DNA of 64,000 bases. Origin: an uncultured Chloroflexia bacterium. Lineage in GTDB: Bacteria > Chloroflexota > Limnocylindria > QHBO01. The notes beneath the pieces are model-generated. The model was given only the letters and a program-made list of their open reading frames with translations. It was not told the origin of the DNA and ran no database searches. The stretch spans positions 128,169-192,168 of the forward strand of contig CAVYGE010000006.1 of the NCBI GenBank assembly GCA_963767985.1, given 5' to 3'. A program made the position numbers and the translations under genes. Shown one piece after another: positions 11,334-41,121 of this stretch (position 1 is its first letter; each line of letters begins with the position of its first letter).

Positions 11334-12392
11334 ATGAACCGTCCAACGATTACCGCAATCATCCCCACTCTCAATGAGCAGGACAACCTTCCACATGTCC
11401 TGCCACGTATCCCCGACTCAGTCGACGAGGTGATCCTCGTCGACGGGCATTCGACCGACCGAACAGTCGAAGTTGCCCGCGAGCTGTTGCCCGACATCAA
11501 GGTCGTCATGCAGCAGGGTCAAGGCAAGGGCGCCGCACTCCGCAGCGGGTTCGAGGCCGCCACCGGCGACATCATCGTGATGCTCGATGCCGATGGCTCG
11601 ACGGACCCCGGCGAGATCCCGAACTTCGTGCACACGCTCCTGGGCGGTGCCGATTTCGCCAAGGGGTCACGGTTCCTGCACAGTGCCGGAACCAGCGACA
11701 TGACGTTCCACCGACGGTGGGGGAACGAGGCGTTCGTCCGCATGGTCCGCCGGCTGTACGGCGGTCGCTACACCGACCTGTGCTACGGCTACAACGCGTT
11801 CTGGCGCCGGGTGCTCCCGGTTCTCGACCTCGATGGCGACGGCTTCGAGATCGAGACCATGATGAACATTCGCGCACTGCGCGCCGGCCTGCGCGTCGTC
11901 GAAGTCCCAAGCTTCGAGGATCGACGGGTCATGGGGGTCGGACGCCTGCGCACCATCCCGGACGGATGGCGTGTGCTCCGGACCATCTGGTCCGAGCGGC
12001 GGCGTGCCGTCACGACCCTCGAGGCTGCCGAGAGCCTGAAGCATCCGCTGGCGCCGCTGGGTGCCGCCACGTCCGGTTGCAATCCCGATCGCGAACGCGT
12101 CGAGCAACGGTCACAGCAACGGCAACGGTCACAGCAACGGTCACAGCAACGGCAACGGCAACGGCCACACCAACGGCAACGGCCACAGTCACTACCCCGA
12201 CCGGATGCTCGTCGACATGGCGATCGCCGATTCGGGCGCCGAAGCGCTGTATTCCGCCGAGCGGGCCGCTCCCTCGCCGGTCGCGCCCGGAACGTGGCAG
12301 TCGCTCGCCGATGGATACGTGTCCCGGCTCGGTTCGCTCATGGGCGCCGTGAGCGGCGACGAGCTTGCGCGCGCCGTCGAGGAGCTGCGTGA
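11334..12392 (+). CDS. GT2 glycosyltransferase resembling polyprenol-phosphate sugar synthases; 3' end unresolved
   Basis: GT-A motifs (ITAIIPTLNEQDNL, VDGHSTDRT, DADGSTDP). SD 8 nt upstream of the ATG. After about 12060 the listed frame becomes Gln/Arg-rich and overlaps gmhA out of frame. The real C-terminus is therefore either near 12060 or continues into the gmhA frame via a frameshift. Confidence 0.7.
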   Translation: MNRPTITAIIPTLNEQDNLPHVLPRIPDSVDEVILVDGHSTDRTVEVARELLPDIKVVMQQGQGKGAALRSGFEAATGDIIVMLDADGSTDPGEIPNFVHTLLGGADFAKGSRFLHSAGTSDMTFHRRWGNEAFVRMVRRLYGGRYTDLCYGYNAFWRRVLPVLDLDGDGFEIETMMNIRALRAGLRVVEVPSFEDRRVMGVGRLRTIPDGWRVLRTIWSERRRAVTTLEAAESLKHPLAPLGAATSGCNPDRERVEQRSQQRQRSQQRSQQRQRQRPHQRQRPQSLPRPDARRHGDRRFGRRSAVFRRAGRSLAGRARNVAVARRWIRVPARFAHGRRERRRACARRRGAA

Positions 12393-12882
12393 GGCCCGTG
12401 ATCGCGGTGCCACGATCTTCATCGCCGGCAACGGCGGGAGCTCAGCCACGGCGGCGCACTGGGTCAACGACCTGGGCAAGGCCACGAAGCTCTCCGGCCA
12501 GCGTCCCCTGCGCGTGATGAACCTGAGCGACAACGTTCCGTGGGTCACGGCCCTCGCGAACGATGAGGGGGTCGATCGCATCTTCTCCGGACAGCTCGAG
12601 AACTTCGCGCGCCCGGACGACGTGCTCATGGTGATCTCGGCGAGCGGGAACTCGCCGAACATCCTGAGTGCGCTCGAGTCAGCCCGAACGCATGGCATGC
12701 GCACGATCGGCCTGATCGGGTTCGATGGTGGAGCGGCCATGTCGCTCCTTGACGTCGCCCTGTGGGTGGAGACCGAGAAGGGAGCCTATGGATTGGTGGA
12801 GACCGCGCACACCGCGCTGGCCGACATCATCACGAGCTGCCTGATCAACGACCGGGTATCGGTCGCCGCCGACCCGGTCTAA
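12061..12882 (+). CDS. gmhA: D-sedoheptulose-7-phosphate isomerase (SIS domain) with N-terminal NGHS-repeat extension
   Basis: SIS motifs (IFIAGNGGSSATAAHWVNDL, VLMVISASGNSPNIL, IGLIGFDGG). GTG 12061 is the first start in frame; an alternative ATG lies at 12205, after the repeat. Confidence 0.8.
   Translation: MPPRPVAIPIANASSNGHSNGNGHSNGHSNGNGNGHTNGNGHSHYPDRMLVDMAIADSGAEALYSAERAAPSPVAPGTWQSLADGYVSRLGSLMGAVSGDELARAVEELREARDRGATIFIAGNGGSSATAAHWVNDLGKATKLSGQRPLRVMNLSDNVPWVTALANDEGVDRIFSGQLENFARPDDVLMVISASGNSPNILSALESARTHGMRTIGLIGFDGGAAMSLLDVALWVETEKGAYGLVETAHTALADIITSCLINDRVSVAADPV
12103..12192 (+). repeat. imperfect tandem AACGGY / CACAGC repeat encoding (N-G-H-S)n
   Basis: agcaacggtcacagcaacggcaacggtcacagc... 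All three forward frames stay open across it. Only the gmhA frame keeps G/C/T at third positions (SNGHSNGNGHSNGHSNGNGNGHTNGNGHSH). Confidence 0.8.
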
Positions 12883-12886
12883 CCCG

Positions 12887-14104: not shown

Positions 14105-15148
14105 CTGCGCAGCGTGTGCTGTTGACGGGACATCGGGGCTACGTCGGATCGGTGATGGCCCCGATCCTCATCGGGGGAGGTCATGACGTCGTCGGACTCG
14201 ACGTCGATTACTTCCGCGGCTGCGACCTCGTGGCGCCGCCGGAGATCCCGAGCATCGAAAAGGACATCCGGGATGTCACCGCCGCCGACCTCGAGGGCTT
14301 CGACGCCGTCATCCATCTTGCCGCGCTGAGCAACGATCCGATCGGCAACCTCAACAGCGGCTGGACCGGATCGATCAACGAAGAAGCCACGGGGCGGGTC
14401 GCCACGCTCGCGCGCGACGCGGGGGTCAAGCGCTTCCTCTTCGCGTCCTCCTGCATCATGTACGGCATGTCGGAGGGCGGCGCCGTCGACGAGACGTCCC
14501 CGCTCAACCCGCAGACCGACTACGCCCGCTCGAAGGTCGTCGGGGAGCGCATGTTGACCGAGCTGGCGACCGATGGCTTCTCGCCGGTTCTCGTGCGCAA
14601 CGGGACGATGTACGGCCTGTCGCCGCGCATGCGATTCGACACCGTTCTCAACAGCCTGGTCGGCGCCGCCATCAGCACCCACAAGATCACCGTCCTCGGC
14701 GACGGCGAGCCGTGGCGCCCCGTCGTCCATGTGCGCGACGTCTCGCGCGGCTTCCTCACACTGCTCGAAGCACCGGTCGAGTCGGTTCACAACCAGGCAT
14801 TCAACCTCGGCACGGAGGATCTGAACATCCAGGTGCGCGACCTCGCCAGGGCCGTGGCCGCGGCGGTGCCCGAGGCCGAGCTCGAGGTGCTCTCACGGCC
14901 GGACGCGGACCAGCGGACCTACCGAACGAGCTTCGCGAAGTTCAACGCGGCGTTCCCCGATTTCGCGTTCGAGTTCAATCCGCACACCGGGGCCGTCGAG
15001 CTGGCCGAATGCCCTGCGTTCGGTCGGCCTGACCCACTCCGACTTCGTCAGCGATCGATTCACCCGGCTGAAGCGCATCGATCGCCTGATCGCCGAGAAC
15101 CGCGTCGACGACGAGCTCCGCTGGCGGGCCGCCGAGGTGGCCGCGTGA
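14101..15148 (+). pseudogene. NAD-dependent sugar epimerase/dehydratase (extended SDR), one apparent +1 frameshift near 15009
   Basis: Rossmann motif LLTGHRGYVGS and catalytic YARSK. After ..GAVELAE the listed frame turns Arg/Pro-rich. The adjacent frame reads ALRSVGLTHSDFVSDRFTRLKRIDRLIAENRVDDELRWRAAEVAA-stop, ending in a GTGA overlap with the next gene. Confidence 0.7.
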
Positions 15149-15594
15149 TCGACGGCGTCAAGGTCGTGCCGCTGCGCCAGATCGTGGACGAGCGCGGCAA
15201 GATCATGCACATGCTCAAGGCCACCGACGAGCATTTCATCGCCTTCGGCGAGATCTACTTCTCGACGGCGTGGCCCGGCACGGTCAAGGCCTGGCACATC
15301 CACCAGACGATGACCGTCAACAACGCGGTGCTGTCGGGGCGGGCGAAGCTCGTCATGTACGACCTTCGCGAGGGCTCACCGACGCGCGGCGAGCTGCAGG
15401 AGGTCTTCATCGGCGAGGACAACTACTGCCTGGTCCAGATCCCGCCCGGCATCGCCAACGGCTACAAGGCCTACGGCGACAAGCAGGTGATCCTCGCCAA
15501 CTGCGGCACCGAGCCGCATGATCCGACCGAGATGCTGCGCATGGACCCCTTCACCGACGAGATCCCCTACGACTGGGGGCTCAGGCATGGCTGA
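15145..15594 (+). CDS. cupin-fold sugar-nucleotide epimerase/isomerase (RmlC/WxcM-like)
   Basis: 149 aa, GTG 15145. Sequence: VIDGVKVVPLRQIVDERGKIMHMLK...AWHIHQTMTVNNAVLSG...IPPGIANGYKAYGD. Confidence 0.6.
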   Translation: MIDGVKVVPLRQIVDERGKIMHMLKATDEHFIAFGEIYFSTAWPGTVKAWHIHQTMTVNNAVLSGRAKLVMYDLREGSPTRGELQEVFIGEDNYCLVQIPPGIANGYKAYGDKQVILANCGTEPHDPTEMLRMDPFTDEIPYDWGLRHG

Positions 15595-16620
15595 GACGGG
15601 CCGCCGTGGAGGACATGCCGAGCACGGCCTGGTCGTGACCCAGACGCCGCTTCGTGTGAGCTTCGCCGGTGGCGGCACCGATCTCCCGGCCTTCTACTCG
15701 ACGGATGGCGGCGCGGTCTTCAGCACGACCATCGACAAGTACGTCTACGTGACGGTGAAGCGCCATGGCCGCGTCTTCGACGAGCAGGTTCGGCTGAACT
15801 ACTCGGTGAGCGAGGCTGTTCACAGCATCGACGCCATTCGCAACGACATCGCCCGGGAGGCGCTCAAGCTCCTCGACATCGAGCCGCCGATCTACATCAG
15901 CGTGGTCAGCGACCTGCCGGACAGCTCGGGCCTGGGTGGTTCGAGCGCGTTTGCCGTGGGGCTGCTCAACGCCCTGCACACGTTCCGCGGCGAGCGAGTC
16001 ACGGCAGCGCAGCTCGCCGACGAGGCATGCCTCCTCGAGATCGAAGTCCTGGGTCAGCCGATCGGGAAGCAGGATCAGTACGCCGCCGCGCTCGGCGGCC
16101 TGAACCTGCTGAACTTCCGGCCGAGCGGTGACGTGTCGGTCGAGGCCCAGATCGCCCGTGAAGGCGCGATCCGCGGGCTGTTCGATCGCCTCGTGATGCT
16201 CTGGACGGGGCATCAGCGCAAGTCGAGCTCCGTGCTCTTCGAGCAGCGAGCGCGCACCGGCGAGCATCGGGTGTTCCTCGAGCGCATGCGGGACCAGGCG
16301 TACGAGCTGCAGGCGCTGATGCGGGAGGCCGGAGCCGGACTACGCTCGTCTCGGGCGGACGCTCGACGCCGGCTGGGAGATGAAGCGCGCCCTCGCCAGC
16401 ACCGTGTCGAACCCGGAGATCGACGCCTGGTATCGGCGCGGGCATGGAGGCCGGCGCCGACGGCGGCAAGCTGTGCGGCGCCGGCGGCGGGGGATTCCTC
16501 CTCTTCGTCGCCGATCCAGCCCATCACGACCGCGTCCGCGACGTCCTCGGCAATCTCACCAGTGTCCCGATCCGCTACGAGGCGCACGGTTCGCGCGTCC
16601 TGCTGGCGCAGGTCGACTGA
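15587..16620 (+). pseudogene. hddA: D-glycero-alpha-D-manno-heptose-7-phosphate kinase (GHMP family), two apparent frameshifts (~16337, ~16443)
   Basis: TPLRVSFAGGGTDLPAFY and the GHMP motif PDSSGLGGSSAFAVGLLNAL. The C-terminal part is recovered in two other frames (DYARLGRTLDAGWEMKRALASTVSNPEIDAWYRRG, then MEAGADGGKLCGAGGGGFLLFVADP...VLLAQVD-stop at 16620). Confidence 0.7.
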
Positions 16621-17561
16621 TGGCCCGCCCGGACCGCACCGTCCCCACTTCCTGATCGTCGGTGCTCCGCGCTGCGGGACGACGGCGATGTACGAGTACC
16701 TGCGGCAGCATCCGGAGATCTTCATGCCGGAGCACAAGGAGCCGCAGTTCTTCGGAGACGACCTGACGCATCTGCATGAGCGACTGAGCCAGCGCGACTA
16801 TCTCGACCTCTTCAAGCCCGCCGCGCCGAGCCAGCTGGTCGGAGAGGCGACCACCTGGTACCTCTCGTCGAGCAGCGCAGCCGGAGAGATCAAACGCTTC
16901 GCGCCGGACGCCAAGATCGTCGTCATGCTGCGCAACCCGGTGGACGTCATGTACTCGCTGCATCGCGAGCTCGCCTTCTACGGCGGCGAGACGATCCTTG
17001 ACTTCGAGGATGCGTTGGCAGCCGAGTCCGACCGTAGGCGAGGTCGACGCATCGGTCCCAGCCGCCGCGCCGAGCCACTCTTCTATCGGCACACCGTTCG
17101 GTTCCCCGAGCAGCTGCAGCGGTACTTCGACGAGTTCGGGCGTGACGCGGTGCACGTCATCCTGTTCGACGACTTCCTCGAGGATCTCGAAGGGACCTAT
17201 CGGCAGCTTCTCGAGTTCCTGGACGTTGATGCCGGCTTCCGTTCCGGACTTCACCCAGGTGAACGAGAGCAAGCGCCCGCGCCTCGCCGCCATCCAGGCC
17301 CTGGTCGTCCGCCCGCCCGGTCCCCTCGGCAAGCTGATTCCCGCGCTGCGGCGCCTGCCCATCGCCCACAAGCTGCGTTCCGCGATCCTGATGGCCAACA
17401 GCCGCGCCGAAGAGCGGCGACCGCTCGATCCGGCACTGCGACGTCGTCTCATCGACGACGTTCGACCCGAGGTCGAGCGGCTCGGAGCCATGCTCGATCG
17501 CGACCTTTCCTCGTGGTTGGAGATCGGCGCCGGCGCACTGCCGACCCGGGCCACCGCATGA
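16620..17561 (+). pseudogene. PAPS-dependent carbohydrate sulfotransferase (Sulfotransfer_1-like), two apparent frameshifts (~16645, ~17243)
   Basis: ATG 16620 (TGATG overlap with hddA) gives MARPDRTV. A C4 run then shifts frame into PHFLIVGAPRCGTTAMYEYL (5'-PSB). The 3'-PB is MLRNPVDVMYS. The C-terminal third is recovered in ORF 16998..17561 (PDFTQVNESKRP...). Confidence 0.7.
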
Positions 17562-18898
17562 CCGGCCGGCTCCTGGCGAGCCGGGCTGCCATCGGAGACA
17601 TTCGCTCTCGCCTCGCTCCGTTTCGACGGACCATCGGCACGACGGGTGGCCTGGTCCTCTCGACGGTGCTCACCAGCGGCACGGGGTTCGTCTTCTGGTG
17701 GCTGGCAGCTCGCCAGTTCCCGAGCGCCGCCGTCGGCCTTGCCGGTGCGGCCGTCTCGGCGATGCTCCTGCTGTCGCAGATATCGGTGATGGGACTCGGG
17801 ACCGCCATGGCCGGGGTGCTCCACCGCGAACCGCGCGCAGGTTCCATGGCCATCACCGCACTCGTCGCGGCTGGTTCCATGGGCGTCGTGACCGGTCTCG
17901 GCTTCGCCCTGATCGCGCCGGTCATCTCGGACGAGCTCGCACCGATCAGCGCTTCGCCCGTGCTGATCGCGGTATTCGCGATCGGCGTTGGCGTGACCGC
18001 GCTGTCCGCCGTGCTCGACCAGGCGCTGGTCTCTGTCTATCGCGGATCGATCCAGGTCCTGCGCAACTTCCTCTTCTCGTTCGGACGCCTGGGACTGCTC
18101 GCGCTCGCGGCGGCACTGCTGACAACGGGCATGTCCATCTATGGCGCCTGGACGGTCGCCACCATCGGCTCGATCCTGGCCATCGTCTTCGTCCCGCGGC
18201 ACCTGCACGAGCTCGGGCATGTCCTGCCGCTCGAGTGGGGCCGGTTGAGCGGCATGGCGTTCGCCGCGCTCTCCCATCACCTTCTCAACCTCACGCGCTC
18301 ATCGTCGGTGTGGCTCCTGCCGATCCTGGTCACCGCGCTCCTGTCGCGCGACGCGAACGCCGCGTTCTACGTCGCGCTGCTGCTCGCCAACTTCGTGTCG
18401 GTCGTCGGCACATCGGCCACGTTCACGCTCTACGTCGTCGGCGCGCGCGCGCCGGACCAGCTCTGGCACCAGATCAGGTTCACCATGGCGCTGACCGGTG
18501 CGATCGCCATCGGCGCCACGCTCGTGCTCCTGGTGACCGGGCGCACGATCCTCGGCCTGTTCGGCGCCTCGTATGCCGATGCTGCGTACCCCACCGTCGT
18601 CGTTCTCGCAGCGTCCACGCTGCCGTTGGCGCTGAAGGACCATTGGATCGCGATCCAGCGGGTGCGCGGCGGTGTGGGCCGAGCGGCCGCCATCGGTGTC
18701 GGTACGCTGGCTGTCGAGCTCACGGCCGCGGCCCTCGGACTTGCGCTCGCCGGCCTGGTGGGGCTCGCGCTGGCCCGGTTCGTGGTGGTGATGGGGCAGG
18801 CAGCGCTGATGGCCCCGACGGTCATCCGGTCGATGTCGCGGCCGCCGATCGGCGACGATGCCGGGGAGGCACCCCCGGCCGAGCGCTCGAATGGCTGA
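17558..18898 (+). CDS. polysaccharide/oligosaccharide flippase (MOP/Wzx-like)
   Basis: ATG 17558 (ATGA overlap with the sulfotransferase stop). 446 aa, at least 12 hydrophobic helices. It is the last part of the artefactual 1126-aa ORF. Confidence 0.6.
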   Translation: MTGRLLASRAAIGDIRSRLAPFRRTIGTTGGLVLSTVLTSGTGFVFWWLAARQFPSAAVGLAGAAVSAMLLLSQISVMGLGTAMAGVLHREPRAGSMAITALVAAGSMGVVTGLGFALIAPVISDELAPISASPVLIAVFAIGVGVTALSAVLDQALVSVYRGSIQVLRNFLFSFGRLGLLALAAALLTTGMSIYGAWTVATIGSILAIVFVPRHLHELGHVLPLEWGRLSGMAFAALSHHLLNLTRSSSVWLLPILVTALLSRDANAAFYVALLLANFVSVVGTSATFTLYVVGARAPDQLWHQIRFTMALTGAIAIGATLVLLVTGRTILGLFGASYADAAYPTVVVLAASTLPLALKDHWIAIQRVRGGVGRAAAIGVGTLAVELTAAALGLALAGLVGLALARFVVVMGQAALMAPTVIRSMSRPPIGDDAGEAPPAERSNG

Positions 18899-19860
18899 GT
18901 CAGGCACCGACTTCTCGGTCGTGATCTGCGTGTACACCGAGGAGCGATGGGACGACATCGAGGCCGCCATCGGCTCGGTCCGATCGCAGGAACCATCGGC
19001 CCGCGAGATCATCGTGGTGGTCGACCATAACCCGATGCTCGAGGAGCGGATCCGCAGGGAACATCGCAACGTGACGGTCGTGCCGAACGGCGGGCAGCAG
19101 GGGCTGTCGGATGCCCGCAACAGCGGTGTCCGGCCGCAAGTGGGGCCATCGTCGCGTTCCTCGACGATGACGCGCGGGCGGAAGCCGGCTGGCTGGCGGC
19201 GATGGCGCGGTCGTACGCCCGGCCGGAGGTGATCGGGGTCGGCGGCTCCGCCGATCCCATCTGGCCCGAGAAGGCGGGCGACCAGCCTGGTTCCCGCAGG
19301 AGTTCGATTGGGTGGTCGGATGCAGCTATCGAGGTTTACCGGAGCGGGCAGCGCCGATCCGGAACTTTCTCGGATGCAACATGAGCTTTCGACGGTCGGC
19401 GTTCGAGGCGGCGGGTGGGTTCGACACGAAGGTTGGCCGCGTGGGCACGCGACCGGTCGGGGGGGAGGAGACCGAGTTCTGCATTCGCGTCCAGCGGATC
19501 GCCCCGGACGCCGTGCTTTGGTATGAACCCGCGGCCCGCGTCAGGCACCGCGTGACCGCGACGCGGGCGAGCTGGAGCTACTACCGAGCGCGGTGCTATG
19601 CGGAGGGACTGTCGAAGGCGATCGTCACCGAGCTCGCCGGCAGTCGATCGGGTCTGGCGTCGGAGCGACGCCACGCGATGGTCACGCTGCCGCTCGGTGC
19701 CCTGCGCCAGATCGGATCCTCGGTTGTCCGGCGTGACGCCGGCGGCGTGCAGCGCGCCGCGGCCATCCTTGCGGGATTGGCGGTCACGACCGCGGGGTAC
19801 GTCGTCGGACGTTGGCAGTCACGGCGGCGGCCGCCAGCCGAGGCCGGGGAGACGTCATGA
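18891..19860 (+). pseudogene. GT2 glycosyltransferase, two apparent frameshifts (~19128, ~19276)
   Basis: FSVVICVYTEERWDDIEAAIGSVRSQ...IIVVVDHN. It continues in other frames as GAIVAFLDDDARAEAGWLAAMARSY, then PAWFPQEFDWVVGCSYRGLPE...GGEETEFCIR. The start overlaps the flippase stop by 8 nt. Confidence 0.65.
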
Positions 19861-29272: not shown

Positions 29273-30199
29273 GTGCGCAGCAATCAAGCTCAGGGCGGGG
29301 ATCCCCAGGTCCTCTTCATCGGCGGATCGGGCCGCAGCGGAAGCACGTTGCTCGATCGGATCATCGGCCAGCTGCCGGGGTACGTATCGGCCGGGGAGAT
29401 TCGCGATGTGTGGCGAGCGGGCGTCCGGGAGAATCGGCTGTGCGGCTGCGGTCGTCCTTTCTCCGACTGCGACTTCTGGACTCGGGTGGGGGAGACTGCC
29501 TTCGGCGGGTGGTCGAATGTCGACGTCGACGCCGCCGATCGATGGATGGGTTCGTACGGGTATCGCGATGCGCTGACCGGTGCCGATGCCGCAGCGCACG
29601 AGCAGCGCTCCGCACTGGTCCGGAGCCTCTATCGCGCAGTCTCCGATGCCGCGGACGGCGCGACCGTCGTGGATTCGTCGAAGTCACCGCCGTACGGCGC
29701 GATGCTCGCAACGACCCTGCCGGGATCGGTGCGGGCCATCCACCTGGTCCGGGACAGTCGGGGCGTGGCCTTCTCGTGGGGGAAGCACGTGAAGCGACCG
29801 GACACGCCAGGTCGGGACGTCGAGATGCATCGCCTCGGCCCGGTGCCGGTCGCAACGCGATGGGTCGTCCACAACCTGATCATGGAGGGACTCGGCAGGC
29901 GCGTGCCGTCAGCCCGCGCACGCTACGAGACGTTGATGGTGGAGCCGCGGCGCGAGATCGACCGCGTGATGGAACGCATCGGGGCGCCGGTCGGCCCCGA
30001 TGGGCTCGACTTCATCGCGGGCAGCCAGGCGCAACTCCGGCCCAATCACACGGTCATGGGAAATCCGATGAGGATGGCGGTCGGGCCGGTCGATCTGCGC
30101 CTGGACGATGCCTGGACGTCGAAGATGGCAACACGCGATCGGCTGACGGTCACGGCGATCACCTGGCCGATGCTGCTTCGCTACGGCTACCGACCCTGA
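29273..30199 (+). CDS. sulfotransferase family protein (Sulfotransfer_3-like), distinct from the other two
   Basis: GTG start. 5'-PSB-like FIGGSGRSGSTLL, 3'-PB-like HLVRDSRGVAFSW, and a Cys cluster CGCGRPFSDCDFW. TAGGCT box at 29228. Confidence 0.65.
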   Translation: MRSNQAQGGDPQVLFIGGSGRSGSTLLDRIIGQLPGYVSAGEIRDVWRAGVRENRLCGCGRPFSDCDFWTRVGETAFGGWSNVDVDAADRWMGSYGYRDALTGADAAAHEQRSALVRSLYRAVSDAADGATVVDSSKSPPYGAMLATTLPGSVRAIHLVRDSRGVAFSWGKHVKRPDTPGRDVEMHRLGPVPVATRWVVHNLIMEGLGRRVPSARARYETLMVEPRREIDRVMERIGAPVGPDGLDFIAGSQAQLRPNHTVMGNPMRMAVGPVDLRLDDAWTSKMATRDRLTVTAITWPMLLRYGYRP

Positions 30200-31237: not shown

Positions 31238-33128
31238 GTGGTACGAATGAGACTTGACTCCCGCTCAGCCGTCCAACGGCCGGCGGGACCGCTGGGTGTC
31301 TGGGGACGGCTGGACGTCACCCGGGTCATTCCGTTCCCGCGATCGGTTCTGATCGCTGCGCTCGGAGCGGTGATCCTCATCGTCCTGGTGGGGTGGATCT
31401 GGACGGTTCGTGATCTCGATCCGCGGGCCCTCACCGACATCGGCCTCATCTCGATCCTGCCCGTGACCGCATACGGGCTGGTGGGTGTGCTGGCCGTGTC
31501 ATTCGTGCTGGCCCTGCGCATGGGGCGCCTCTCCGAGACGCTTCTCCTGGCGCACGTCCTGGGCCTGATCTTCATGCTGTATGGAGCGACATCGTTGTTC
31601 GAGGAGCTGCCGCGCTTCTTGACAGCCTGGCTCCACGTCGGGTTCGTCGAGAGCATCGCCCGTACCGGTGAGCTCCACCCGTTCCGCGACGCGCGATTCG
31701 ACTGGCCAGGGTTCTTCGTGCTGTTCGCCTTCCTGCAGAACGTGGCGCGCATGGACAGCCTGCTCCCGATCATCGCCTGGGTGCCGGTCGTGCTCGTGGC
31801 ACTCTACCTGCCGCCGCTGTACCTCATCTATCGGTCCGCGACGGCCGACCTGCGGCTCGTGTGGCTCGGGCTGTGGATCTTCGTGATGGTCAACTGGGTC
31901 GGGCAGGAGTATTTCTCGCCGCAGGGCATGAACATCCTTCTCTTCCTCACGATCGTCGCTGCCCTGGTCACGTGGTTCCGGGCCGACCCATCGCGCACCT
32001 CGAGGCTGTCGCAGCTCGTGGCGCGCATCCCGGGCATGCGCGGCCGTGAGCGCGTCCTGGTGGATCCGAACGCGGAAACCGAGGGCGGCCCCCGCGCCTG
32101 GGTGTCGGATCATCAGCAGATTGGCCTCGTGGCGATCATCACGCTGGTCTTCGGACTGTCGGTGGCAAGCCACCAGCTGACGCCGTTCGCACTGGTGGGC
32201 GCGCTCGTGCTCCTCGTGATGACGCGCCGGCTGACGCTGTGGGGCATCCCGATCATCATGATGGTGTTCCTCAGCGCGTGGCTCACCTTCATGGCGGCGA
32301 CGTTCCTGGAGGGCCACCTTGCCGGCCTGCTCGAGGACCTGGGACGCCCGGACCAGTTTGCCGCGTCGAACGTATCGGGTCGGCTCCAGGGCAGCCCCGG
32401 TCACCTGTGTGGCGCTCCAGGCCCGTCTCGCCTTCACGTTCCTCATCTGGATCGTCGCTCTCGTGGGCGGCGTCCGGCGGATCCGGGCAGGCCGGCTCGA
32501 TCTGACGCTTGCCATGCTTGCCATCGCACCGTTCGGCCTGATCCTGCTGCAGGGGTACGGGGGCGAGATGCTGCTGCGGATCTTCCTATTCGGGATCGCC
32601 TTCATGGCCTTCTTCGTCGCAGCGGCGCTGCTTCCGACCGAGCGGGCGATGTCGTGGAAGCTCAGCGGCGGCGTCGTGGTCGCGTCCGTCTTCCTGGCCT
32701 TCGGGTTCCTCTTCACGCACAACGGAAACGAGCGGTCGGACATCATCAGCGTGCGCGAATTCGAGGCACTCGAGTTCCTGACCGACACCGCAGCGGACGG
32801 CGACACGATCGCCCGCATCAACCACCAGGTCCCGGTCGGCTATCGCGAGTGGGAGCAGATGCGCGTGGTCTCGATCAACTCCGAGTTCATGGAACCGGAC
32901 ATGCAGGCCCTGACCGATGAGCTCCGCCTGCGAACCCGCGAAGGGCAGGACGCCTACATCATCGTGTCGCGCAGCAACGAGGCGTACGCCATCATGTTCC
33001 AGGGCATGACGCTCGACGCGTGGCATGAGCATCTCCGCCTCCTGCTGTCCGAGGTCGACCTCGAGGAGATCTACCGCAACGAAGACGCGGTGGTGTATCG
33101 CTGGCTGCAGACCGATCTCGAGACATGA
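31238..33128 (+). pseudogene. large polytopic membrane protein with C-terminal soluble domain (candidate GT-C-type glycosyltransferase or polymerase); apparent frameshift near 32395
   Basis: More than 12 hydrophobic helices spread over ORFs 31238..32920 and 32319..33128. An acidic DLD lies just after helix 1 (VRDLDPRALTD). A ~170-aa hydrophilic C-terminal domain follows. No family confidently recognised. Confidence 0.4.
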
Positions 33129-33614: not shown

Positions 33615-34785
33615 TTGACCCTGGACCAGGACGAATCACCAGCTGAATCCCGCGCGATCGGCGTGGCGCGAGTCGGGCAGACGGCCCTCGAGGCGCCGCG
33701 TCTCGGCGTCGGGACCGTCCCGCTCGGCAACATGCTCGGCGAGGTCGGCATCACCGTGGATGACGACGAGGCACGGGCCATCGTCGAGACGGCGCATCGG
33801 CTCGGCGCCCGACTGGTCGACACCGCCCCCCAGTACGGGACGGGCCTCGCCGAGCGACGCGTCGGAACCGCACTGGCCGAGCTGCCTCGCGACGAGCTGA
33901 TCATCTCGACGAAGGTCGGCCGGCTCCTGCGTCCGGTGACCACGCTCCAGAAGGTCGCCGGTGTGCTTCGCCAGACCGTCTCGGGGCCCGAGCGTGGCCC
34001 GGCCCTCCTTGGACGTCACATCGCGCGCGCAGCTCGCCGGCTCGCCGGAAAGGATCCGGCCTACGGCCTTGGATTCCCGTTCGACCGCGGCGACGAGCGC
34101 TCGCTGGAGGCGTACTTCGACTTCAGCTACGACGGTGTCATGCGTTCGGTGGAAGGCAGTTTCGAGCGGCTCGGCGTTGACCGGCTGGACATGCTCTTCA
34201 TCCACGACCCCGATGATCACTATGAGGAGGCCCTCTCGGGCGCCTTCAAGGCTCTCGACCGGCTTGCGCGCCGAAGGCTCCGTCACCGCGATCGGCGTCG
34301 GCATGAACCAATCCGAGATGCTCACCCGCTTTGCCACGGATGCAGCCTTCGACTGCTTCCTGCTGGCCGGCAAGTACTCGCTCTTGAACCAGGCCGGGCT
34401 CGAGGACCTGCTGCCGGCGGCAGCCGAGCGTGGCATGACGGTCAACATCGGTGGGGTCTTCAACAGCGGGTTGCTGGCCGACCCCCGTCCGGGCGTCGCG
34501 TTCGACTACCACGCGGTCGGGTCGAACTCGGAGCCGCTGCGCCGCGCCCTTCGGCTCAAGGACGTCTGCGATCGGCACGGAGTCCCGTTGGCCGCGGCAG
34601 CGGTGCAGTTCCCGCTGGGCCATCCGGCCGTAGGGACCGTGCTCGTCGGCGTGCGCTCGGCCGCGGAGCTGACCGAGAACGTCCAGCACTTCACCCACCC
34701 GATTCCGCTCGACCTCTGGAAGGAGCTGCGGCATGAGGGGCTCGTGCCGGGTCACGTTCCGCTGCCGGGGCTCCCGCCCGCCTGA
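33615..34785 (+). pseudogene. aldo/keto reductase, apparent frameshift near 34265
   Basis: LGVGTVPLG, VDTAPQYGTGLAERRVG, IISTKVG, LDMLFIHDPD. The next frame continues as GSVTAIGVGMNQ..., VFNSGLLA, VLVGVRSAAELTENV. Confidence 0.7.
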
Positions 34786-34823
34786 CGTGGTGCGTGCTGG
34801 CACCCTGTGGCCGCCGAACGTAC

Positions 34824-34852
34824 TGGACGGAATCGGGACGTCCGTGTAGGCT
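34824..34852 (+). promoter_or_regulatory. candidate promoter TGGACG-N17-TAGGCT upstream of the CWB2 gene
   Basis: Hexamers have 17-nt spacing. A strong SD (AAAGGGGG) lies 5 nt before GTG 34905. Confidence 0.25.
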
Positions 34853-34904
34853 GCGCCGGAATTCGATCTCATCCTCACCAGAGCCTGTCCACAAAGGGGG
34901 AACA

Positions 34905-36687
34905 GTGTCGACGCTGCATCCACACGCCCATTCGCGTCGCCGTAGCGGCGTGGCCGCACTGGCCGTCGCGACGCTGGTCGCATCAGTATCCATCTCGATG
35001 TTCGCCGTGCCGCCCGTTCAGGCGGCGGCAAGCGATGTGTCGCGCCAGAGCGGTGCCAACCGCTTCGCGACCGCAGCCGATATCTCGAAGAAGACCTTCG
35101 CGCCCGGCGTGGGCGTGGTGTACGTCGCCAACGGCATCGAGGGCATCCCGGACGCGCTCGCCGCGGGACCCGCCGCTGCCAAGCTCGGCGGACCGACCCT
35201 GCTGGTCACGAAGACCAGCATCCCGTCCGAGACGCGCGTCGAGATTGACCGGCTGAACCCGGCCAAGATCGTCGTCGTGGGCGGCACCGGAGTTGTGTCG
35301 TCGGCCGTTCAGTCGGCCCTGGCACCCTACGCCGGTGGCGGGGGCGTTTCGCGCCAGAGCGGTGCCAACCGCTTCGCCACCGCAGCCGATATCTCCAAGA
35401 AGACCTTCGCGCCCGGCGTGGGCGTGGTGTACGTCGCCAACGGCATCGAGGGCATCCCGGACGCGCTCGCCGCGGGACCCGCCGCTGCCAAGCTCGGCGG
35501 ACCGACCCTGCTGGTCACGAAGACCAGCATCCCGTCCGAGACGCGCGTCGAGATTGACCGGCTGAACCCGGCCAAGATCGTCGTCGTGGGCGGCACCGGA
35601 GTTGTGTCGTCGGCCGTCCAGTCGGCCCTGGCACCCTACGCCGGTGGCGGGGGCGTTTCGCGCCAGAGCGGTGCCAACCGCTTCGCCACCGCAGCCGATA
35701 TCTCCAAGAAGACCTTCGCGCCCGGCGTGGGCGTGGTGTACGTCGCCAACGGCATCGAGGGCATCCCGGACGCGCTCGCCGCGGGACCCGCCGCTGCCAA
35801 GCGCGGCGGACCGACCCTGCTGGTCACGAAGACCAGCATCCCGGCCGAGACGCGCGTCGAGCTCGACCGACTGAACCCGGCCAAGATCGTCGTGGTCGGC
35901 GGCACGGGCGTGGTGTCGAGCTCGGTCCAGAACGCACTGGTGCCGTACATCGTGACTCCGACGCCAACTCCCACGCCGACTCCGACGCCAACTCCGACAC
36001 CGACCCCGGCGCCAGGCGTCTCGGCGCCGTTCGTGCGCAACTTCAACGGCGGGGAGGGCGAGACTCCTCGACGCCGGCTTCGACGGACTGATGACCGGCG
36101 CGACGCTGGATGGTGACGTGCATCTTTCGGGCGGCGGCTCGTCAATCCGACGGTTGCCGAGGGGGACGCATTCAATGGAGGAAATGACCAGAAGGACGCG
36201 CTCCTGGTGGACATGACCGTTCCCGCGGGCAACTTCACCGTCCACGGCGTGGTGTGCTCGCCGTACCCGCCACGAGGAGTTCGCTTCGGCTGGGGATCTT
36301 CTTCGGCACGGGCGACCAGGACAACTACGTCAAGGCGGTCGTCAGCTGGAGCCCGGACCTCGATACGACCCAGGTGCACGATACCCGGGAGGTCGGCGGG
36401 GACGGTTTCGGGATCGCCGACAAGGCGGATGCGAACATCCTGTCCGATCCGTGCCTCGACCTGTACCTCACGGTGAACAAGGCAGCGATGACGTACGCAC
36501 CGGCGTACTCGTTGGACGGCGGCAGCACGAAGATCGGCTTCGGCGGCGTTTGCGGCGGCTGCGCACGATCCCGGCCTCGTGGCTGGATGGCTCGAACCCG
36601 CTCGCCATCGGCGTCATCGCGACGTCGCAGGGACCGGCCGCACCGTTCAGCGCCTCGTGGGATCTCCTCGAGGTGACCATTCCGTAG
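34905..36687 (+). pseudogene. surface protein: signal peptide, 3 x cell-wall-binding repeat 2 (CWB2), (PT)n linker, C-terminal concanavalin-A-like lectin domain; C-terminal third has at least 4 frameshifts
   Basis: Signal peptide (VAALAVATLVASVSISMFAVPPVQA). Three 103-aa repeats: RQSGANRFATAADISKKTF...ALAAGPAAAKLGGPTLLVTK...IVVVGGTGVVS. TPTPTPTPTPTPTPTPTPAP linker. The lectin-like tail is spread over several frames (..GDQDNYVKAVVSWSP.., ..AYSLDGGSTKIGFGG.., ..LAIGVIATSQGPAAPFSASWDLLEV). Confidence 0.7.
35036..35962 (+). repeat. three tandem 309-bp repeats, near-identical at nucleotide level
   Basis: The anchor string cgcgccagag recurs at 35041, 35350 and 35659 (period 309). Only scattered substitutions separate the copies. 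In frame, one unit equals one CWB2 module. Confidence 0.9.
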
Positions 36688-36694
36688 GCTGCGT

Positions 36695-36724
36695 GACCCT
36701 CGGACGCGTCGCCGTCCGAGGGTC
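36695..36724 (+). terminator. perfect 12-bp hairpin 8 nt after stop 36687
   Basis: GACCCTCGGACG-CGTCGC-CGTCCGAGGGTC. No U-tract (I-shaped type). Confidence 0.45.
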
Positions 36725-36861
36725 GTCTACCACGCCGATCGCTTGATGGGTCGGCGGCGAGCCGTCTGGTATCGTTCGGCGAGGACGGTCGATGGTCGGG
36801 GCCGGGTGGCTGGACGCGGCGACCTGCCTCAACCCATATCCTCGCCCAGGATCGACAACGT

Positions 36862-38155
36862 ATGCCCGAGCATCTCCATCCCGGCCTGCGAGGAGCTGGT
36901 CCGGCGTTTCGAAGCCGCATCGGTCCGCTGGGCGTTGCTGCGGCTCCCCGCCGACCTCCTTCGTCCGCGGCGGGGATATCGACCTGCTCGTGCATCCGGA
37001 GGACCGGTCGCTGGCGCGACGAGGCATGCATCGACCTTGGATTCGTTCGCATCGCCGCGTCCGGCGCGAGTACGCCCTACGTGCTCTACCACCGATCGAC
37101 GGGGACGTGGCTGCACTCGATCTCGCCTCGAGCCCGCTTCCGGATGGTTGGGCGGTACGGTGATCTCGCCGCGAGCGGCGCCGGCACGGGTCCTCGCGCG
37201 TTCGATCGCCGAGGACGGAATTCGACGCCTGCACCGCGACGACGAATTCTGGGGGCTAATGCTTCATCTCGCCGATGGCGCCCGCCAGGTCGCCCGATCG
37301 TCACTGGGCAACCCTGCGCAGCAACGCGGAGTTCGCAACGATGATGTCCGCCATCGTCCAGGCCGTTCGATCGCAGCGACCCGACGCCCCGGTCGTTCTC
37401 GAGCGCGCACGTGCGGCCGTGCTGGCGAACGATCACGTCCTGCATTCGCGACACTCCTGGGCGAGCTCGCGACCATGGCGGGCACCCGGAGCTGGATCCG
37501 CAACCTGCCGCGCCTCGTTTCGCGGCCGTGGCGGGCGTGGCATCATCGAGGTCTGAGCGTTGCCCTCCTCGGGCCGGATGGTGCCGGGAAATCCTCCCTG
37601 GCCCAGTGCCTGGTGGGTCGGTCGTTCTTTCCGACGAGCGTCGTGTACATGGGGACCGGCATCCCGGGCGACGTCATGGCGCGCCCCGCCGCGCTGCGCT
37701 GGATGCGGGGCCCGGTGCTGTTTCCGATCGGAGGCACACTCGTCCAGTGGGACCGGTACCTTCGCGCCCTTGGCGAAAGGGTGCGCGGGAAGATGATCAT
37801 CTTCGATCGCTATACCGAGGAAGCACTCCTGCCCCCACCCGACTCCGATCCGAGCTGGAAACGGCTCACACGTGGCGTTCGACGCGCGTTGGCGTGCCCC
37901 ACGCCGCAGATCACCATCGTCCTCGACGCTCCGGGAAGCGTGATGTTCGACCGCAAGGGCGAGCATGACGGCCCGTGGCTGGAGGCTCAGCGGCACCGCT
38001 ACCGCGCTCTGGCCGAGCACCTCCCCGGTGCGGTGATCATCGATGCCGAGCAGCCGCGCGATGCCGTCTGCGCGGAGGCCATGGCCGCGATCTGGGCCGC
38101 GTTCGCGGGTCGGCATGAGCGCCGCCGCAGCCAGATGGAGCGAGCCACCGGATGA
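36862..38155 (+). pseudogene. nucleotidyltransferase-like N-domain (GGDIDLLV type) fused to P-loop thymidylate-kinase-like domain; at least 6 frameshifts in the first 600 nt
   Basis: Fragments in alternating frames: CEELVRRFEAASVRWALLRLP / RGGDIDLLVHPEDRSLA / IDLGFVRIAASGASTPYVLYHRSTGTWLH / VISPRAAPARVLARSIAEDGIRRLHRDDEFWGLMLH / HWATLRSNAEFATMMSAIVQAV. An intact tail follows with the P-loop LLGPDGAGKSSLAQ. Confidence 0.4.
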
Positions 38156-39000
38156 AGACCGCGGCGCCATTTGGGCGGCTCAACGGTGGAGGGAGCACCA
38201 CTCCGGATGTGGTGAGCAGGCCCGTGCGACGCGTCTACATCCTGGGAGGAGAGGGCAGCGGCAAGACAACCCTCGCGCAGCGGATCCATGACACGCTCGG
38301 CCTGAGCGTGCATCAGCTCGACTATGTCGCCTGGCGCGGTGCGGAAGAAGGAACGGTGCCGCTGTTCGACCCCCGCTACCAGCCGCCGACCCGCCTCATC
38401 CCGCGCCCCGTCGAGGAGCGGCTGGCCCTCATCGAGGAGATCGCGGCCACAGAATCGTGGGTCGCCGAGGGGAAGCATCTGTGGTGGACCGAGGGTCTGC
38501 TGCGGCAGGCGGATCTCGTCGTGTGGCTCGACCATGTTCCATTCCCACGAGCGGCCTCACGCGTCATGCGGCGCGCGGCGCGCAGCGGCGGGCGGAGCTT
38601 CCGCAGCCATCGAGGGCGTCGGAAGTTCACGCGGTTCCGTGACTACGCACGCCATGGACGGTCTCTCTTCCGGCAGCTCCGCAACCTTCTGCTGTACTAC
38701 GTCGCACCGCTGTCGTCGAAGCCGCCGGATCTCACGGACTACTGGCCCATCGTCACCCGATCGGCCACCCAGGAGTTCCTCCGGCCCTATGCCGTCAAGG
38801 TCGTGAGCATCAAGCACACGTCCGAGCTCGACACGTTGATCGCGGCATTGAGCGATTCCGTCGACGCACCTGCTCCGTCGAGGCGGAACGCTAGCAGTCG
38901 TCAGGCCGCGCGCGGCGCGGCCTTCGGTGGCATGGCCGACTCGAACACCGGCTTGGCGACGAAGGCGGCCTGGATGGTCACGGCGATGAGCCATCCGTAG
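38152..39000 (+). CDS. P-loop NTPase/kinase (adenylate-kinase / FlaR-like)
   Basis: ATGA overlap with the previous gene. P-loop VYILGGEGSGKTTLAQRI. The 3' ~100 nt overlap the convergent flippase pseudogene, so the true end is uncertain. Confidence 0.45.
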   Translation: MKTAAPFGRLNGGGSTTPDVVSRPVRRVYILGGEGSGKTTLAQRIHDTLGLSVHQLDYVAWRGAEEGTVPLFDPRYQPPTRLIPRPVEERLALIEEIAATESWVAEGKHLWWTEGLLRQADLVVWLDHVPFPRAASRVMRRAARSGGRSFRSHRGRRKFTRFRDYARHGRSLFRQLRNLLLYYVAPLSSKPPDLTDYWPIVTRSATQEFLRPYAVKVVSIKHTSELDTLIAALSDSVDAPAPSRRNASSRQAARGAAFGGMADSNTGLATKAAWMVTAMSHP

Positions 39001-40197
39001 GCCAGGCCCTCCAGTCCGCCCATGACGGCACCGACCGAGGACAGTCCGACTTCGAGCCCAGCGCCCACCCAGCCGAAGAGCGCGGCCTTGCCCAGTCCGC
39101 TTCGAATGCGCTGGATCGCCACCCAGTGATCCTTGATGAGCAGCGGGAAGCCACGCACGGCCAGGATCGCGATGGCGGGATAGGCGGAGTCCGCGTAGGC
39201 GCTCCCGAAGACGGACAGCACGAGCTGGCCGGCCAGGAGAAAGACCAGGCTGCCGCCGATCGCGGAAGCAGCCGACATGGCCATGGTCACGCGGACCTGC
39301 TTCCACAGCTGGTCAGGATCCTTGGCGCCGACGGCGAACAGCGTCAGCGTGGCGGACTGTCCCGACGAGACTGACGTAGTTCGACAGCAGAAGGGCGATG
39401 TAGAACGCTGCGTTGTCGGCCCGGGTCAGGATGACCGGGACGATGATCGGGAGCATCGATGCCGGAGCGAAGCGGGAGACGTTCAGCAGGTGGTGCATCA
39501 GGGCCTTGCGCGCCAGGCCGAAGAACTTGTCCCAGACCAGCGGACGCCAGCCGTTGTCGAGACCGCGATGGCGGATGTACCACGCCATGTAGACGAGCGA
39601 CAGCAGGATGCCGAACTGCCACGCGACGTAGATCGCCATCCCCTCGTTCCCGAGCCACAGGCCGGCCAGGACGAGGATCACCAGCTTTGCCATCGAGAAG
39701 ATCACGTTCCGAATCAGCTGGAGGGCACTGCGGAAGAGCCCGACCAGCACCTGGTCCAAGCACGGCGGTTGCAGCCGTCAGGCTCACGCCGACCGCGAAG
39801 ATGAAGATGCGGAGCGGGTCGCTGCCGATCGGTGCAAGGTCGCTGAACAGCGACGGTGCAAGAGCGGCAAAGACGATCCCCATCGCGCCGCCGATGGCAA
39901 CGGTTGCGGTCAGCGACGTCAGGATCAGCCTGCGCCGGCCGCGGCTCATCGTCGGCAGTTCACCGAGGAGCGTCGTGCCCAGGCCGACCAGCGCGATCCT
40001 TCCCAGGAACAGCATGGCGGAGATGGCCGATGCCGCGATTCCCGACGGCGTCCGGCGAGAACGCCCGCGCAGCGGCGTACCAGAAGAGGAAGCCCGACCG
40101 CTCCGTTGAGGAGCGAGACGGCGATGAGCGAGCCGGTCATCTTCATGACCGCGCTACTCTTCGGCAGCCTGGACATCAGCCGCCGGGCGAAGGTCAC
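38901..40197 (-). pseudogene. second MOP/Wzx-like flippase, paralog of 17558..18898; at least 3 frameshifts
   Basis: Four ORF fragments (39946..40197, 39344..40015, 39313..39759, 38901..39290) align colinearly with the first flippase. For example, LMHHLLNVSRFAPASMLPIIVPVILTRADNAAFYIALLLSNYVS matches LSHHLLNLTRSSSVWLLPILVTALLSRDANAAFYVALLLANFVS. An extra g near 39349 breaks ..VGT|SATLTLFAVGAKDPDQLW. Confidence 0.6.
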
Positions 40198-41121
40198 CTA
40201 TCCGGCGACCTCGGCGCGATCCACCTGGGACGCGATCCAGGAGTCGAGATTCCAGCCGGTGATCTGCGCCAGTTCCCGGACCTCGTCGGCCACGTCGGCC
40301 TCGAGTCGCGCGCGCAGCTGGTCGTCCATGGGCGGGCGTTGGTCCTTGCGGCTGTTCATGGCGACGAGCGATCCGCGAAGCCGATGCAGGATGGGCGCCC
40401 GCCGCAGAAGCGGAATCAGCCGATCGAGGGGAAACGGTGGCCGAACCAGGAGGTCCTGGACAGGCCGCTCTTCGGCTGCTTCGTCTCGTTGACGCGCTCG
40501 AAGGACGGAACGAACGTGGTGTCCGCGCCGATGAACGCGAGGATGTCGAGGTAGACCGCCCTCGGATCGGACCGCAGGTCGTCGTAGTTCACGAGTTTGA
40601 CCTGCTCGGCGTGGGAAGGTGTCGAGATAGCGCCGGACCTGGTCCGGGAAGCGCACGGCGTTGCGGTAGCAGAGGGTCTCGACGCGTCGCACCCCCCTGG
40701 GCACACGGCGTCCGGCGAGTCGATCCGGCTCGGCCGCGAGCGCCGCGGCGAAATCACGGATCGTTTCGGCCCGGTAGAAGACCATCTCGCGGTGGAGCGA
40801 GTGCATGACGTCCACCGGACTGCGCAGCATGATGACGATGCGTGCGTCGGGATTCGCCTCCTTGATCTCGCCAGCGGCCAACCGCGAATAGAGCGACCAG
40901 GTGGAGGCCTCGCCGATGAGCTGGCCCGGCAGAGCGGCCGCAAACAGACGCTCGTACTCCGTGCGCGTCAGGCGGCCGTGCCGATGGTGGAGATCTGCGC
41001 CGAAGTAGTTCGGCTCCTTGTGCTCTGGCATGTAGATGCCGGGATGCTGCTTCAGGTAGTCGTACATCGCGGTCGTCCCGCAGCGTGGCGCGCCGACGAT
41101 GAGAAAGTCCGGAAGGGTCAA
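40198..41121 (-). pseudogene. second PAPS-dependent carbohydrate sulfotransferase, paralog of 16620..17561; two frameshifts (~40614, ~40460)
   Basis: LPDFLIVGAPRCGTTAMYDYL (5'-PSB) and MLRSPVDVMHS (3'-PB). The middle segment is in ORF 40416..40943 (HAEQVKLVNYDDLRSDPRAVYLDILAFIGADTTFVPSFERVNETKQP). Confidence 0.65.

Follow-up and report, generated by a model that had tools for sequence, protein, structure and literature searches.

The frame breaks that cluster in the surface-glycan gene island of this uncultured Chloroflexia bacterium are, with a probability of about 0.93, insertion-type consensus errors in an assembly of the long-read style, rather than mutations of the organism. Such errors are patchy across the whole genome, and the living organism therefore most likely has an intact glycan gene cluster. 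The lesions are present in the deposited sequence, genome-wide and in essential genes; accurate reads of the same or a sister strain lack them, and their pattern goes with the assembly instead of the lineage. The clustering in the island mirrors this genome-wide patchiness, not a decay specific to the island, and there is no new biology in these frame breaks.

The window, a stretch of 64,000 nucleotides, belongs to a highly contiguous metagenome-assembled genome (MAG) of 2.75 Mb in 7 contigs. Its CheckM completeness is 84% despite the small number of contigs, as expected if broken marker genes lower the estimate. The island encodes a GT2 with GmhA (SIS), a nucleotidyltransferase with HAD, an SDR epimerase, a cupin epimerase, the GHMP kinase HddA, sulfotransferase-1, flippase-1, and further GT2 and GT4 enzymes. 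RmlC-like, DRL oxidoreductase, and GT2 genes follow on the minus strand, then a GH16-like gene, two beta-helix proteins, a sulfotransferase, a CPBP protease, a polytopic membrane protein, an aldo/keto reductase, and a surface protein with three CWB2 repeats and a lectin part (CWB2x3-lectin), while flippase-2 and sulfotransferase-2 are encoded on the minus strand. The initial annotation had reported frameshifts throughout this island. Independent evidence supports 27 frame breaks of one base each from 12.07 to 40.61 kb (Table 1), and these sit at, or a few bases from, nearly all of the positions that it had given, as judged from a sister strain, near-identical contigs, a paralogue, Pfam domains, and a Viterbi gene model. 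Two breaks reported outside the island, at 63080 and 63615, were recovered by the gene model as well.

Table 1. Positions of the island and of the frame breaks in the window (runs are designated X; "model" is the frameshift-aware gene model).
Feature	Position	Strand	Evidence
Surface-glycan gene island	11487-41121		Viterbi gene map and Pfam on products joined across frames
Extra base, GT2/GmhA gene	12070-12076	+	Sister strain 1 base shorter at 12070; +1 model event at 12076
Extra base, SDR epimerase	15008-15011	+	Four of four runs (X1-X4) 1 base shorter at 15011; model event at 15008
Extra base, hddA	16327-16329	+	Sister strain 1 base shorter at 16327; model event at 16329
Extra base, hddA	16437-16441	+	Sister strain 1 base shorter at 16437; model event at 16441; GHMP_kinases_C unbroken over the junction
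Missing base, sulfotransferase-1 near the 5' end	16622-16645	+	Sister strain with an additional T after 16624
Extra base, sulfotransferase-1	17238-17239	+	Four of four runs (X1-X4) 1 base shorter at 17239; model event at 17238
Missing base, GT2	19130-19131	+	Near-identical Illumina contig (196 nt, 1 mismatch) with an additional A after 19131; model events; GT2 Pfam domain (1-165 of 168) runs over 19130
Second frame break, GT2	19276-19285	+	Model events at 19285; GT2 domain unbroken; absent among the sister-strain indels listed
Extra base, PT-rich secreted or anchored protein gene	24499-24507	-	97.9%-identical contig (328 nt, 7 mismatches) 1 base shorter at 24507; model event at 24499
Extra base 5' of the GH16-like domain	25200	+	Sister strain 1 base shorter; stretch too fragmented for the gene model
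Extra base, 3' end of the GH16-like gene	26070-26090	+	Sister strain 1 base shorter at 26070/26072; low-penalty model event at 26090
Extra base, polytopic membrane protein	32394-32409	+	Sister strain 1 base shorter at 32409; model event at 32394
Extra base, aldo/keto reductase	34266-34267	+	Four of four runs (X1-X4) 1 base shorter at 34266; model event at 34267; Aldo_ket_red (2-286 of 291) spans the site
Six lesions, lectin part of the CWB2x3 surface protein gene	36063-36557	+	Extra at 36063, 36273, 36292, 36552, and 36557 (sister strain 1 base shorter); missing at 36135 (1 base longer); model events at 36064, 36138, 36290, and 36559
At least 4 lesions, weak frame-hopping coding signal	36890-37437		36890 and 36967, relatives in X5/X1 1 base shorter; one within 37173-37314, X19 contig with 1 mismatch and 1 gap; 37437, X20 contig 1 base shorter
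Extra base, flippase-2	39360-39361	-	X5 1 base shorter at 39360; model event at 39361; frame switch in tblastn with flippase-1
Frame break, flippase-2	39755-39762	-	Abutting tblastn HSPs in different frames; +1 model event at 39755
Compensated pair, sulfotransferase-2	40461-40615	-	Missing base at 40461, 98.8%-identical X19 contig (166 nt aligned, 2 mismatches) with an additional A; extra base at ~40610, X1 1 base shorter; model events at 40461 and 40615
Two +1 events outside the island, MoaD/MoaE region	63079-63628	+	Gene model only (events at 63079 and 63628)

Several of these sites can be followed at the protein level. In sulfotransferase-1, the ATG at 16620 starts MARPDRTVP, and joining it to HFLIVGAPRCGTT takes one more base. 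Compared by tblastn with its paralogue flippase-1, flippase-2 changes frame near 39360 and again near 39760, so that its match occupies three frames. The alignment of sulfotransferase-2 with its paralogue drops out between 40461 and 40615 and resumes in another frame; the two errors compensate each other, so that a 307-aa open reading frame stays open with about 50 residues out of frame. For the stretches at 18.85-19.4, 24.6-25.6, and 36.65-37.7 kb, blastx against all predicted proteins of the genome gave no helpful paralogues, and a Pfam search of the raw frame pieces of 36.7-38.2 and 24.6-26.1 kb returned the known GH16 match alone. Within the island, the errors fall into distinct sub-patches, whose limits do not follow its functional borders.

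The frameshift-aware gene model, a home-made 3-periodic 5th-order Markov Viterbi detector that recovered 67% of simulated insertions and mislabelled some gene junctions, gave 753 filtered events over the 2.75 Mb of the genome, or 0.27 per kb. They comprise 594 +1 and 159 -1 events and affect 527 of the 2,425 gene chains. This detector was adopted because a Viterbi model using codon usage alone, which was dropped, confused strands and produced spurious junctions too often at 70% GC. The initial annotation had argued that a uniform error rate does not account for the clustering, and this holds, because the events are over-dispersed (variance/mean of 2.1 to 2.4 in bins of 5 to 10 kb), with 11 event-free gaps longer than 30 kb, where 0.9 were expected, and a two-state model that fits better than a single rate by 143 log-likelihood units. 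The link that it drew to the glycan island is not supported: +1 lesions reach an equal or higher local density in about 80 patches spread over the genome, whatever the function of the genes. Of all 28.6-kb stretches, 9.8% match or exceed the island in number when all events are counted and 15.3% when only +1 events are. The contrast that it drew with the clean stretches at 19.9-23.9, 26.2-32.3, and 41.2-63.0 kb is real, but it does not exceed what chance gives in this genome, as 16% of the 35.4-kb stretches are as clean as the island flanks.

Essential single-copy genes carry lesions of the same type. In leuS, a single-copy gene, six +1 events fall within 850 bp, and at five of them a base is missing from the short-read contigs of a relative. 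There are 11 events in 2.3 kb of dnaE; this gene taken alone proves nothing, because an intact dnaE paralogue lies at C6:245571, and leuS was therefore taken instead. The FtsW-MurG-MurB-Ddl block, a UvrD-type helicase, and GcvT are also affected, and all of these broken genes, dnaE and leuS included, show full-length Pfam architectures after joining.

Accurate reads disagree with the assembly wherever they cross a claimed site. Five sites (19131, 24507, one in 37173-37314, 37437, and 40461) are crossed by soil contigs that are 97.9 to 99.5% identical to the assembly over 141 to 328 nt and are marked as Illumina-derived by Nextera adapter remnants. These contigs contradict the assembly by one base at five of the five sites, and among the near-identical contigs examined, none backs an assembly indel. 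The initial annotation had named the restoration of frames by accurate reads as the outcome that speaks against a biological reading, and this is what was found at each site crossed. Near-identical coverage is very thin (2-6x, in contigs of 140 to 330 nt), with the five crossings all outside leuS, where near-identical soil runs searched at 97% gave zero contigs over the indel sites. A search for the source reads of the assembly found no run that contains them, the best share of sampled words being 0.15, and X19 and X20 may come not from the source sample but from another sampling of the same population.

A strain about 95% identical to the assembly (runs X1-X4, with relatives in X5 and X1) restores the frame at no fewer than about 20 island sites, a count taken from the best-supported indels. 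This sister strain is one base shorter than the assembly at most of these sites and one base longer at 16624 and 36135. In the clean flanks, the sister-strain indels listed fall in non-coding spacers on the gene map or form compensated pairs. Substitutions between the strains lie at multiples of three (e.g., 27060-27273), which suggests that the genes are under purifying selection. One option of the initial annotation supposed strain heterogeneity at such loci; from 11 to 36.7 kb, the relative carries the island genes, with most pieces at roughly flank-like identity, which does not bear out a special variability of the island.

Genomes of the same genus show that the load follows the type of assembly and not phylogeny. 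A fragmented congener assembly (G002, 50 contigs, 96% complete) had 0.059 events per kb, with 1 +1 event and 12 -1 events in 220 kb, while another in 20 contigs (G008, 56% complete) had 0.45 per kb, with 81 +1 and 18 -1 events; the present genome lies between them. Given this background in G002, the true excess is almost purely +1, and nearly all the -1 calls are detector background. Direct DNA comparison with genomes of the genus was useless for placing indels, the best identity being 66 to 72%.

An organism that really carries about 30 fresh indels and has very recently switched off its glycan pathway would explain the higher density of lesions in the island, with 16 filtered events against 3 in the flanks, and why the pieces on either side of each break are still open, as expected for very young breaks. 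The initial annotation had called the lesions recent or artefactual; they are artefactual rather than old, and recent inactivation of the island is very improbable. The island ranks only in the top 10 to 15% of the genome, so that lesions are neither confined to a dispensable locus nor strongly enriched in it, and leuS, the cell-wall genes, and dnaE carry identical lesions at equal or higher density. A pseudogenised island should also present a mixed lesion spectrum and relaxed selection, whereas here only 1-bp indels occur, about 85% of them insertions where the direction was resolved, the joined island products contain no internal nonsense codons, larger deletions and IS elements are absent, and the 3-nt periodicity relative to the sister strain is maintained. 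Moreover, the lesion is absent in all five near-identical contig crossings, and a congener assembled in this style carries the same load. Two other biological readings are more improbable still. The strong +1 bias (594 versus 159) and the full-length products obtained after skipping one base would fit real extra bases read through +1 programmed frameshifting, quadruplet decoding, or RNA editing, and slipped-strand mispairing at simple repeats would fit the classic role of surface-glycan genes as targets of phase variation and the GG/GGG and C4/C5 runs noted earlier at three sites. Sequence context rejects both homopolymer slippage and motif-directed recoding: genome-wide, no motif is shared by the events (best k-mer odds ratio of 1.75, at 13% of sites), slippery or quadruplet motifs included, and homopolymers of 4 or more are not enriched at them (12.8% against 13.0%). 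A GC-driven effect was also rejected, the difference being negligible (0.703 around events versus 0.695 genome-wide). Recoding is further contradicted by the absence of the bases from the 95% sister strain and from near-identical reads, by the near lack of +1 events in the well-assembled congener, and by several deletions (16624, 19131, 36135, and 40461). For phase variation, most sites lie outside runs and lack repeats at the shift, and about 30 loci off at once, together with housekeeping genes, do not fit.

There is a minority chance that the errors arose where co-existing strains differ and the consensus caller kept spurious bases, so that patches mark microdiverse segments. This would be a sub-variant of the artefact and not an alternative to it, and it was the first option of the initial annotation, whose poor consensus and locally low coverage belong to the right family of explanations. 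Related strains at ~90 to 96% and 98 to 100% identity do co-occur in the same studies, and the leuS patch coincides with a stretch to which contigs of many related organisms are recruited, at a depth in the hundreds; however, other strongly recruiting stretches are error-free (e.g., window positions 9601-10752, depth of 400 to 1200). On the preferred reading of consensus error, the assembly holds several hundred context-free single-base errors, overwhelmingly extra bases. They are bunched in ~80 patches, each about as long as a read (~5 kb) and with ~0.8 events per kb, with ~12 kb clean between them, and the island overlaps three or four of these patches. The cause may be that long reads gave thin or strain-mixed support locally when the consensus was built and polished. 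It is barely conceivable that the extra bases beyond the five read-checked sites are real, in a Limnocylindrales-type lineage tolerating hundreds of context-free +1 insertions through a recoding or editing step, or, in a milder form, that a few genuine inactivating indels of the island are hidden among assembly errors.

These results concern the use of this genome and of similar few-contig MAGs of the genus with low "completeness." Over roughly a quarter of the assembly length, gene calls, pseudogene counts, apparent fusions, and completeness estimates are unreliable, and the apparent MoaD-MoaE fusion near 63.08 kb is an example not to be trusted. Compensated double errors such as that of sulfotransferase-2 escape length-based quality control, because the reading frames stay open. 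The glycan island, with its heptose activation, sulfotransferases, flippases, GT2/GT4, and CWB2-lectin genes, is best treated as probably functional.

In phase-variable contingency loci, slipped-strand mispairing acts on glycan genes of Neisseria, Haemophilus, and Campylobacter. The present breaks resemble them in being on/off frameshifts of glycosyltransferase-type genes, but the sites lack repeat tracts and the lesions are not confined to surface genes. The many adjoining frameshifted genes of a glycan locus also recall the pseudogenisation, or reductive decay, of surface-polysaccharide loci, from which this case differs by its insertion-biased 1-bp indels only, the involvement of essential genes, the contradiction by accurate reads, and the purifying selection suggested relative to the sister strain. 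The closest likeness is to indel errors of long-read assemblies. Frameshifts caused by indels, dependent on coverage, are documented in the consensus of long-read MAGs, and the classic artefact is homopolymer-associated (PMC9262707); the problem is measured by the IDEEL test and remedied by short-read polishing or frameshift-correction tools (PMC9262707, PMC12007338). The error process here is atypical of that description because it is not associated with homopolymers, and it also differs by ~80% or more insertions and a strong patchiness at ~5 kb. As in such assemblies, hundreds of genes, some of them essential, are cut short or divided by single-base indels, CheckM completeness is lowered although contiguity is high, and accurate short reads lack the indels, whose load belongs to the assembly rather than the lineage.

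The genome (G000; 2.745 Mb in 7 contigs, 69.5% GC) has a CheckM completeness of merely 84% although it is contiguous, and the relatives of the window (C6:128169-192168) are MAGs of Chloroflexota and Candidatus Limnocylindrales. Long spurious ORFs occur in all frames of the window at such GC, so that frameshifts are not demonstrable from ORF lists alone. Frame breaks were sought along four independent lines of evidence: a sister strain, near-identical short-read contigs, homology, and a purpose-written gene model (a 3-periodic fifth-order Markov Viterbi with explicit frameshift transitions). The model events fell a few bases from the frameshifts reported by the initial annotation in the surface-glycan island. 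Taken together, the lines of evidence gave 27 independently supported lesions between 12.07 and 40.61 kb (at least 20 extra and 4 missing bases).

The sister strain, about 90 to 96% identical to the window, was present in Logan contigs from hot-spring runs (X1-X4), which also showed a depth spike of 190-310 across 12068-12601. Two soil runs (X19/X20) matched the window at 99 to 100% in pieces, one of 613 nt having a single mismatch and one of 151 nt having none, and Nextera adapter remnants at the loose ends of their contigs indicate Illumina data. Five of the claimed sites were crossed by X19/X20 contigs (five contigs, 141-328 nt, 97.9-99.5% identity), all of which were exactly one base off the assembly, and an assembly indel was supported by none. 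The depth of the population in these runs was only 2-6x, compatible with low abundance. Paired +1/-1 differences from the sister strain, 4-6 nt apart, were also seen within genes at 29590-29596 and 32888-32892, and may be genuine two-codon variants or alignment effects.

Differences between the window and related contigs (X1-X5, X19 and X20, sequencing runs)
Difference	Compared with	Window positions	Basis
Extra base in window	Sister strain (X1-X4)	12070, 15011, 16327, 16437, 17239	Contig alignment
Extra base in window	Sister strain (X1-X4)	25200, 26070/72, 32409, 34266	Contig alignment
Extra base in window	Sister strain (X1-X4)	36063, 36273, 36292, 36552, 36557	Contig alignment
Base missing from window	Sister strain (X1-X4)	16624, 36135	Contig alignment
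Further sites in 36.7-41 kb	X5/X1 contigs	36890, 36967, 39360, 40610	Contig alignment
X19/X20 relative to assembly	X19/X20 contigs	19131 (+A), 24507 (-1), 37437 (-1), 40461 (+A), one gap within 37173-37314	Contig alignment
Spacer indels	Sister strain	53932, 54373, 54456, 55502-55581, 56854-56873, 62022	Non-coding in gene map
Spacer indels	Sister strain	3042-3141, 10968, 11036	Non-coding in gene map

Homology ran across the breaks. The Pfam domains GT2 (1-165/168), GHMP_kinases_C and Aldo_ket_red (2-286/291) were continuous over 19130 and 19285, 16441, and 34267, respectively, and the flippase paralogue alignment stayed contiguous over three frames, switching frame near 39360 and 39760. The ATG overlapping the hddA stop at 16.6 kb starts MARPDRTVP, and one added base is needed to join the sulfotransferase P-loop HFLIVGAPRCGTT. 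Sulfotransferase-2 (40198-41121, minus strand) has an uninterrupted ORF of 307 aa in which a central stretch of about 50 residues lacks any paralogue similarity. Since similarity resumes in another frame, 40461/40615 is a compensated pair: a base is lost at 40461 and another gained at about 40610, which leaves the roughly 50 residues between them out of frame. Such compensated double errors slip past any ORF-length or pseudogene check. Between 36.88 and 37.45 kb, where at least six frameshifts had been counted, four read-supported indels were found, all in the 36690-37600 stretch. There, the coding signal, weak in all six frames, hops +1, +0, +1, +2, +1; an open frame (+1) extends over 36743-38155, and Pfam and paralogue searches gave no match.

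The island also carries a sulfotransferase and flippase pair twice, inverted, at its two ends (16688-18898, plus strand; 38901-41121, minus strand), with amino acid identities of about 48% for the sulfotransferases and 42-48% for the flippases. Three near-identical 103-aa CWB2 modules, each matched by Pfam CW_binding_2, precede a (PT)9 linker and a lectin-like domain at 34950-35900, and a low-complexity Asn/Gly/His/Ser-rich linker (SNGHSNGNGHSNGHSNGNGNGHTNGNGHSH) joins the GT2 and GmhA(SIS) parts at 12090-12190.

The clustering of the lesions, which had been taken as specific to the island, is not special for this genome. The model called 821 events genome-wide, 753 after filtering (0.27 per kb; 594 +1 and 159 -1), affecting 527 of 2,425 gene chains. 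They were over-dispersed throughout (variance/mean of 2.1-2.4 in 5-10 kb bins): 30% had a neighbor within 300 nt (12% expected), and 11 event-free gaps exceeded 30 kb (0.9 expected). A two-state Poisson model raised the log-likelihood by 143 units over that of one uniform rate, with a clean state (0.07 events per kb, mean run of 12 kb) and a dense state (0.77 per kb, mean run of 5 kb) forming about 80 patches over 22-29% of the genome. With its 16 filtered events (+1 in 12 cases), the island is equaled or exceeded by 9.8% of 28.6-kb stretches (15.3% for +1 only; maximum, 25), and the model marks separate sub-patches within it rather than one unit; 16% of 35.4-kb stretches are as clean as its flanks.

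Recent inactivation of the island would account for frame breaks in its genes, but essential genes carry the same lesions and accurate reads disagree with them. Joining the most-affected chains across frames restored full-length architectures of DnaE (11 events), LeuS (6 events), the FtsW-MurG-MurB-Ddl block, a UvrD-PD-(D/E)XK helicase and GcvT. Two Pol III alpha homologs are present, one in an intact 1278-aa frame (C6:245571-246794) and one with 11 frame breaks (C3:438722-442435); because of the intact paralog, leuS served as the test gene. It is single copy, and two frames share its editing domain. All six of its events are +1, and five coincide with bases without counterpart in the sister-strain contigs (1602/1605, 1972, 2095, 2204 and 2452/3 of its locus, L013), while no indel near the sixth (1849) was among the sister-strain indels listed. 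No cell would be viable with six frameshifts in its sole leuS. Substitutions between strains are spaced at multiples of three (27060-27273), which suggests purifying selection on the island genes, and the flank indels listed against the sister strain (43-63 kb, 1-11.5 kb) lie in non-coding spacers or form compensated pairs, the latter in minor contigs. Slipped-strand phase variation, motif-directed frameshifting and quadruplet decoding were excluded by the lack of homopolymer enrichment and motif: island sites are mostly outside homopolymers, runs of at least four bases were as frequent near +1 events genome-wide (12.8%) as at control positions (13.0%), and the best k-mer, CGGGC (odds ratio, 1.75), occurred at 13% of sites.

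Scanning 220 kb of each of two same-genus genomes revealed that the load tracks assembly, not lineage. G002 (96% complete, 50 contigs) had 13 events (0.059 per kb; 1 +1 and 12 -1), the clean-state rate of G000. This rate explains essentially all -1 calls of G000, which are gene-junction artifacts, so that the true excess is almost purely +1. G008 (56% complete by CheckM, 20 contigs; C10:1-220000, L105-L115) had 99 events (0.45 per kb; 81 +1 and 18 -1), the same insertion-biased signature as G000. The detector recovered 67% (80/120) of simulated random insertions, which puts the likely true error count of G000 near 900. Two +1 model events also fall at 63079 and 63628, so that an assembly error probably underlies the apparent single MoaD-MoaE frame (62808-63700), which may be no genuine fusion.

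The lesions thus exist, but they lie genome-wide, strike essential genes, are contradicted by accurate reads and are specific to certain assemblies; the artifact reading of the initial annotation is supported, the island-specific and biological readings find no support, and the island frameshifts are not a real biological feature. They are consensus errors of the insertion type in a long-read-style MAG, packed in read-length-scale patches, probably caused by locally thin or strain-mixed read support. Chiefly, they call for caution with this assembly and those of its congeners. Published work (PMC9262707, PMC12007338) describes indel frameshifts in long-read MAG consensus, their dependence on coverage and the consequences for gene calling; that literature stresses homopolymers, whereas the pattern in G000 has no such association.
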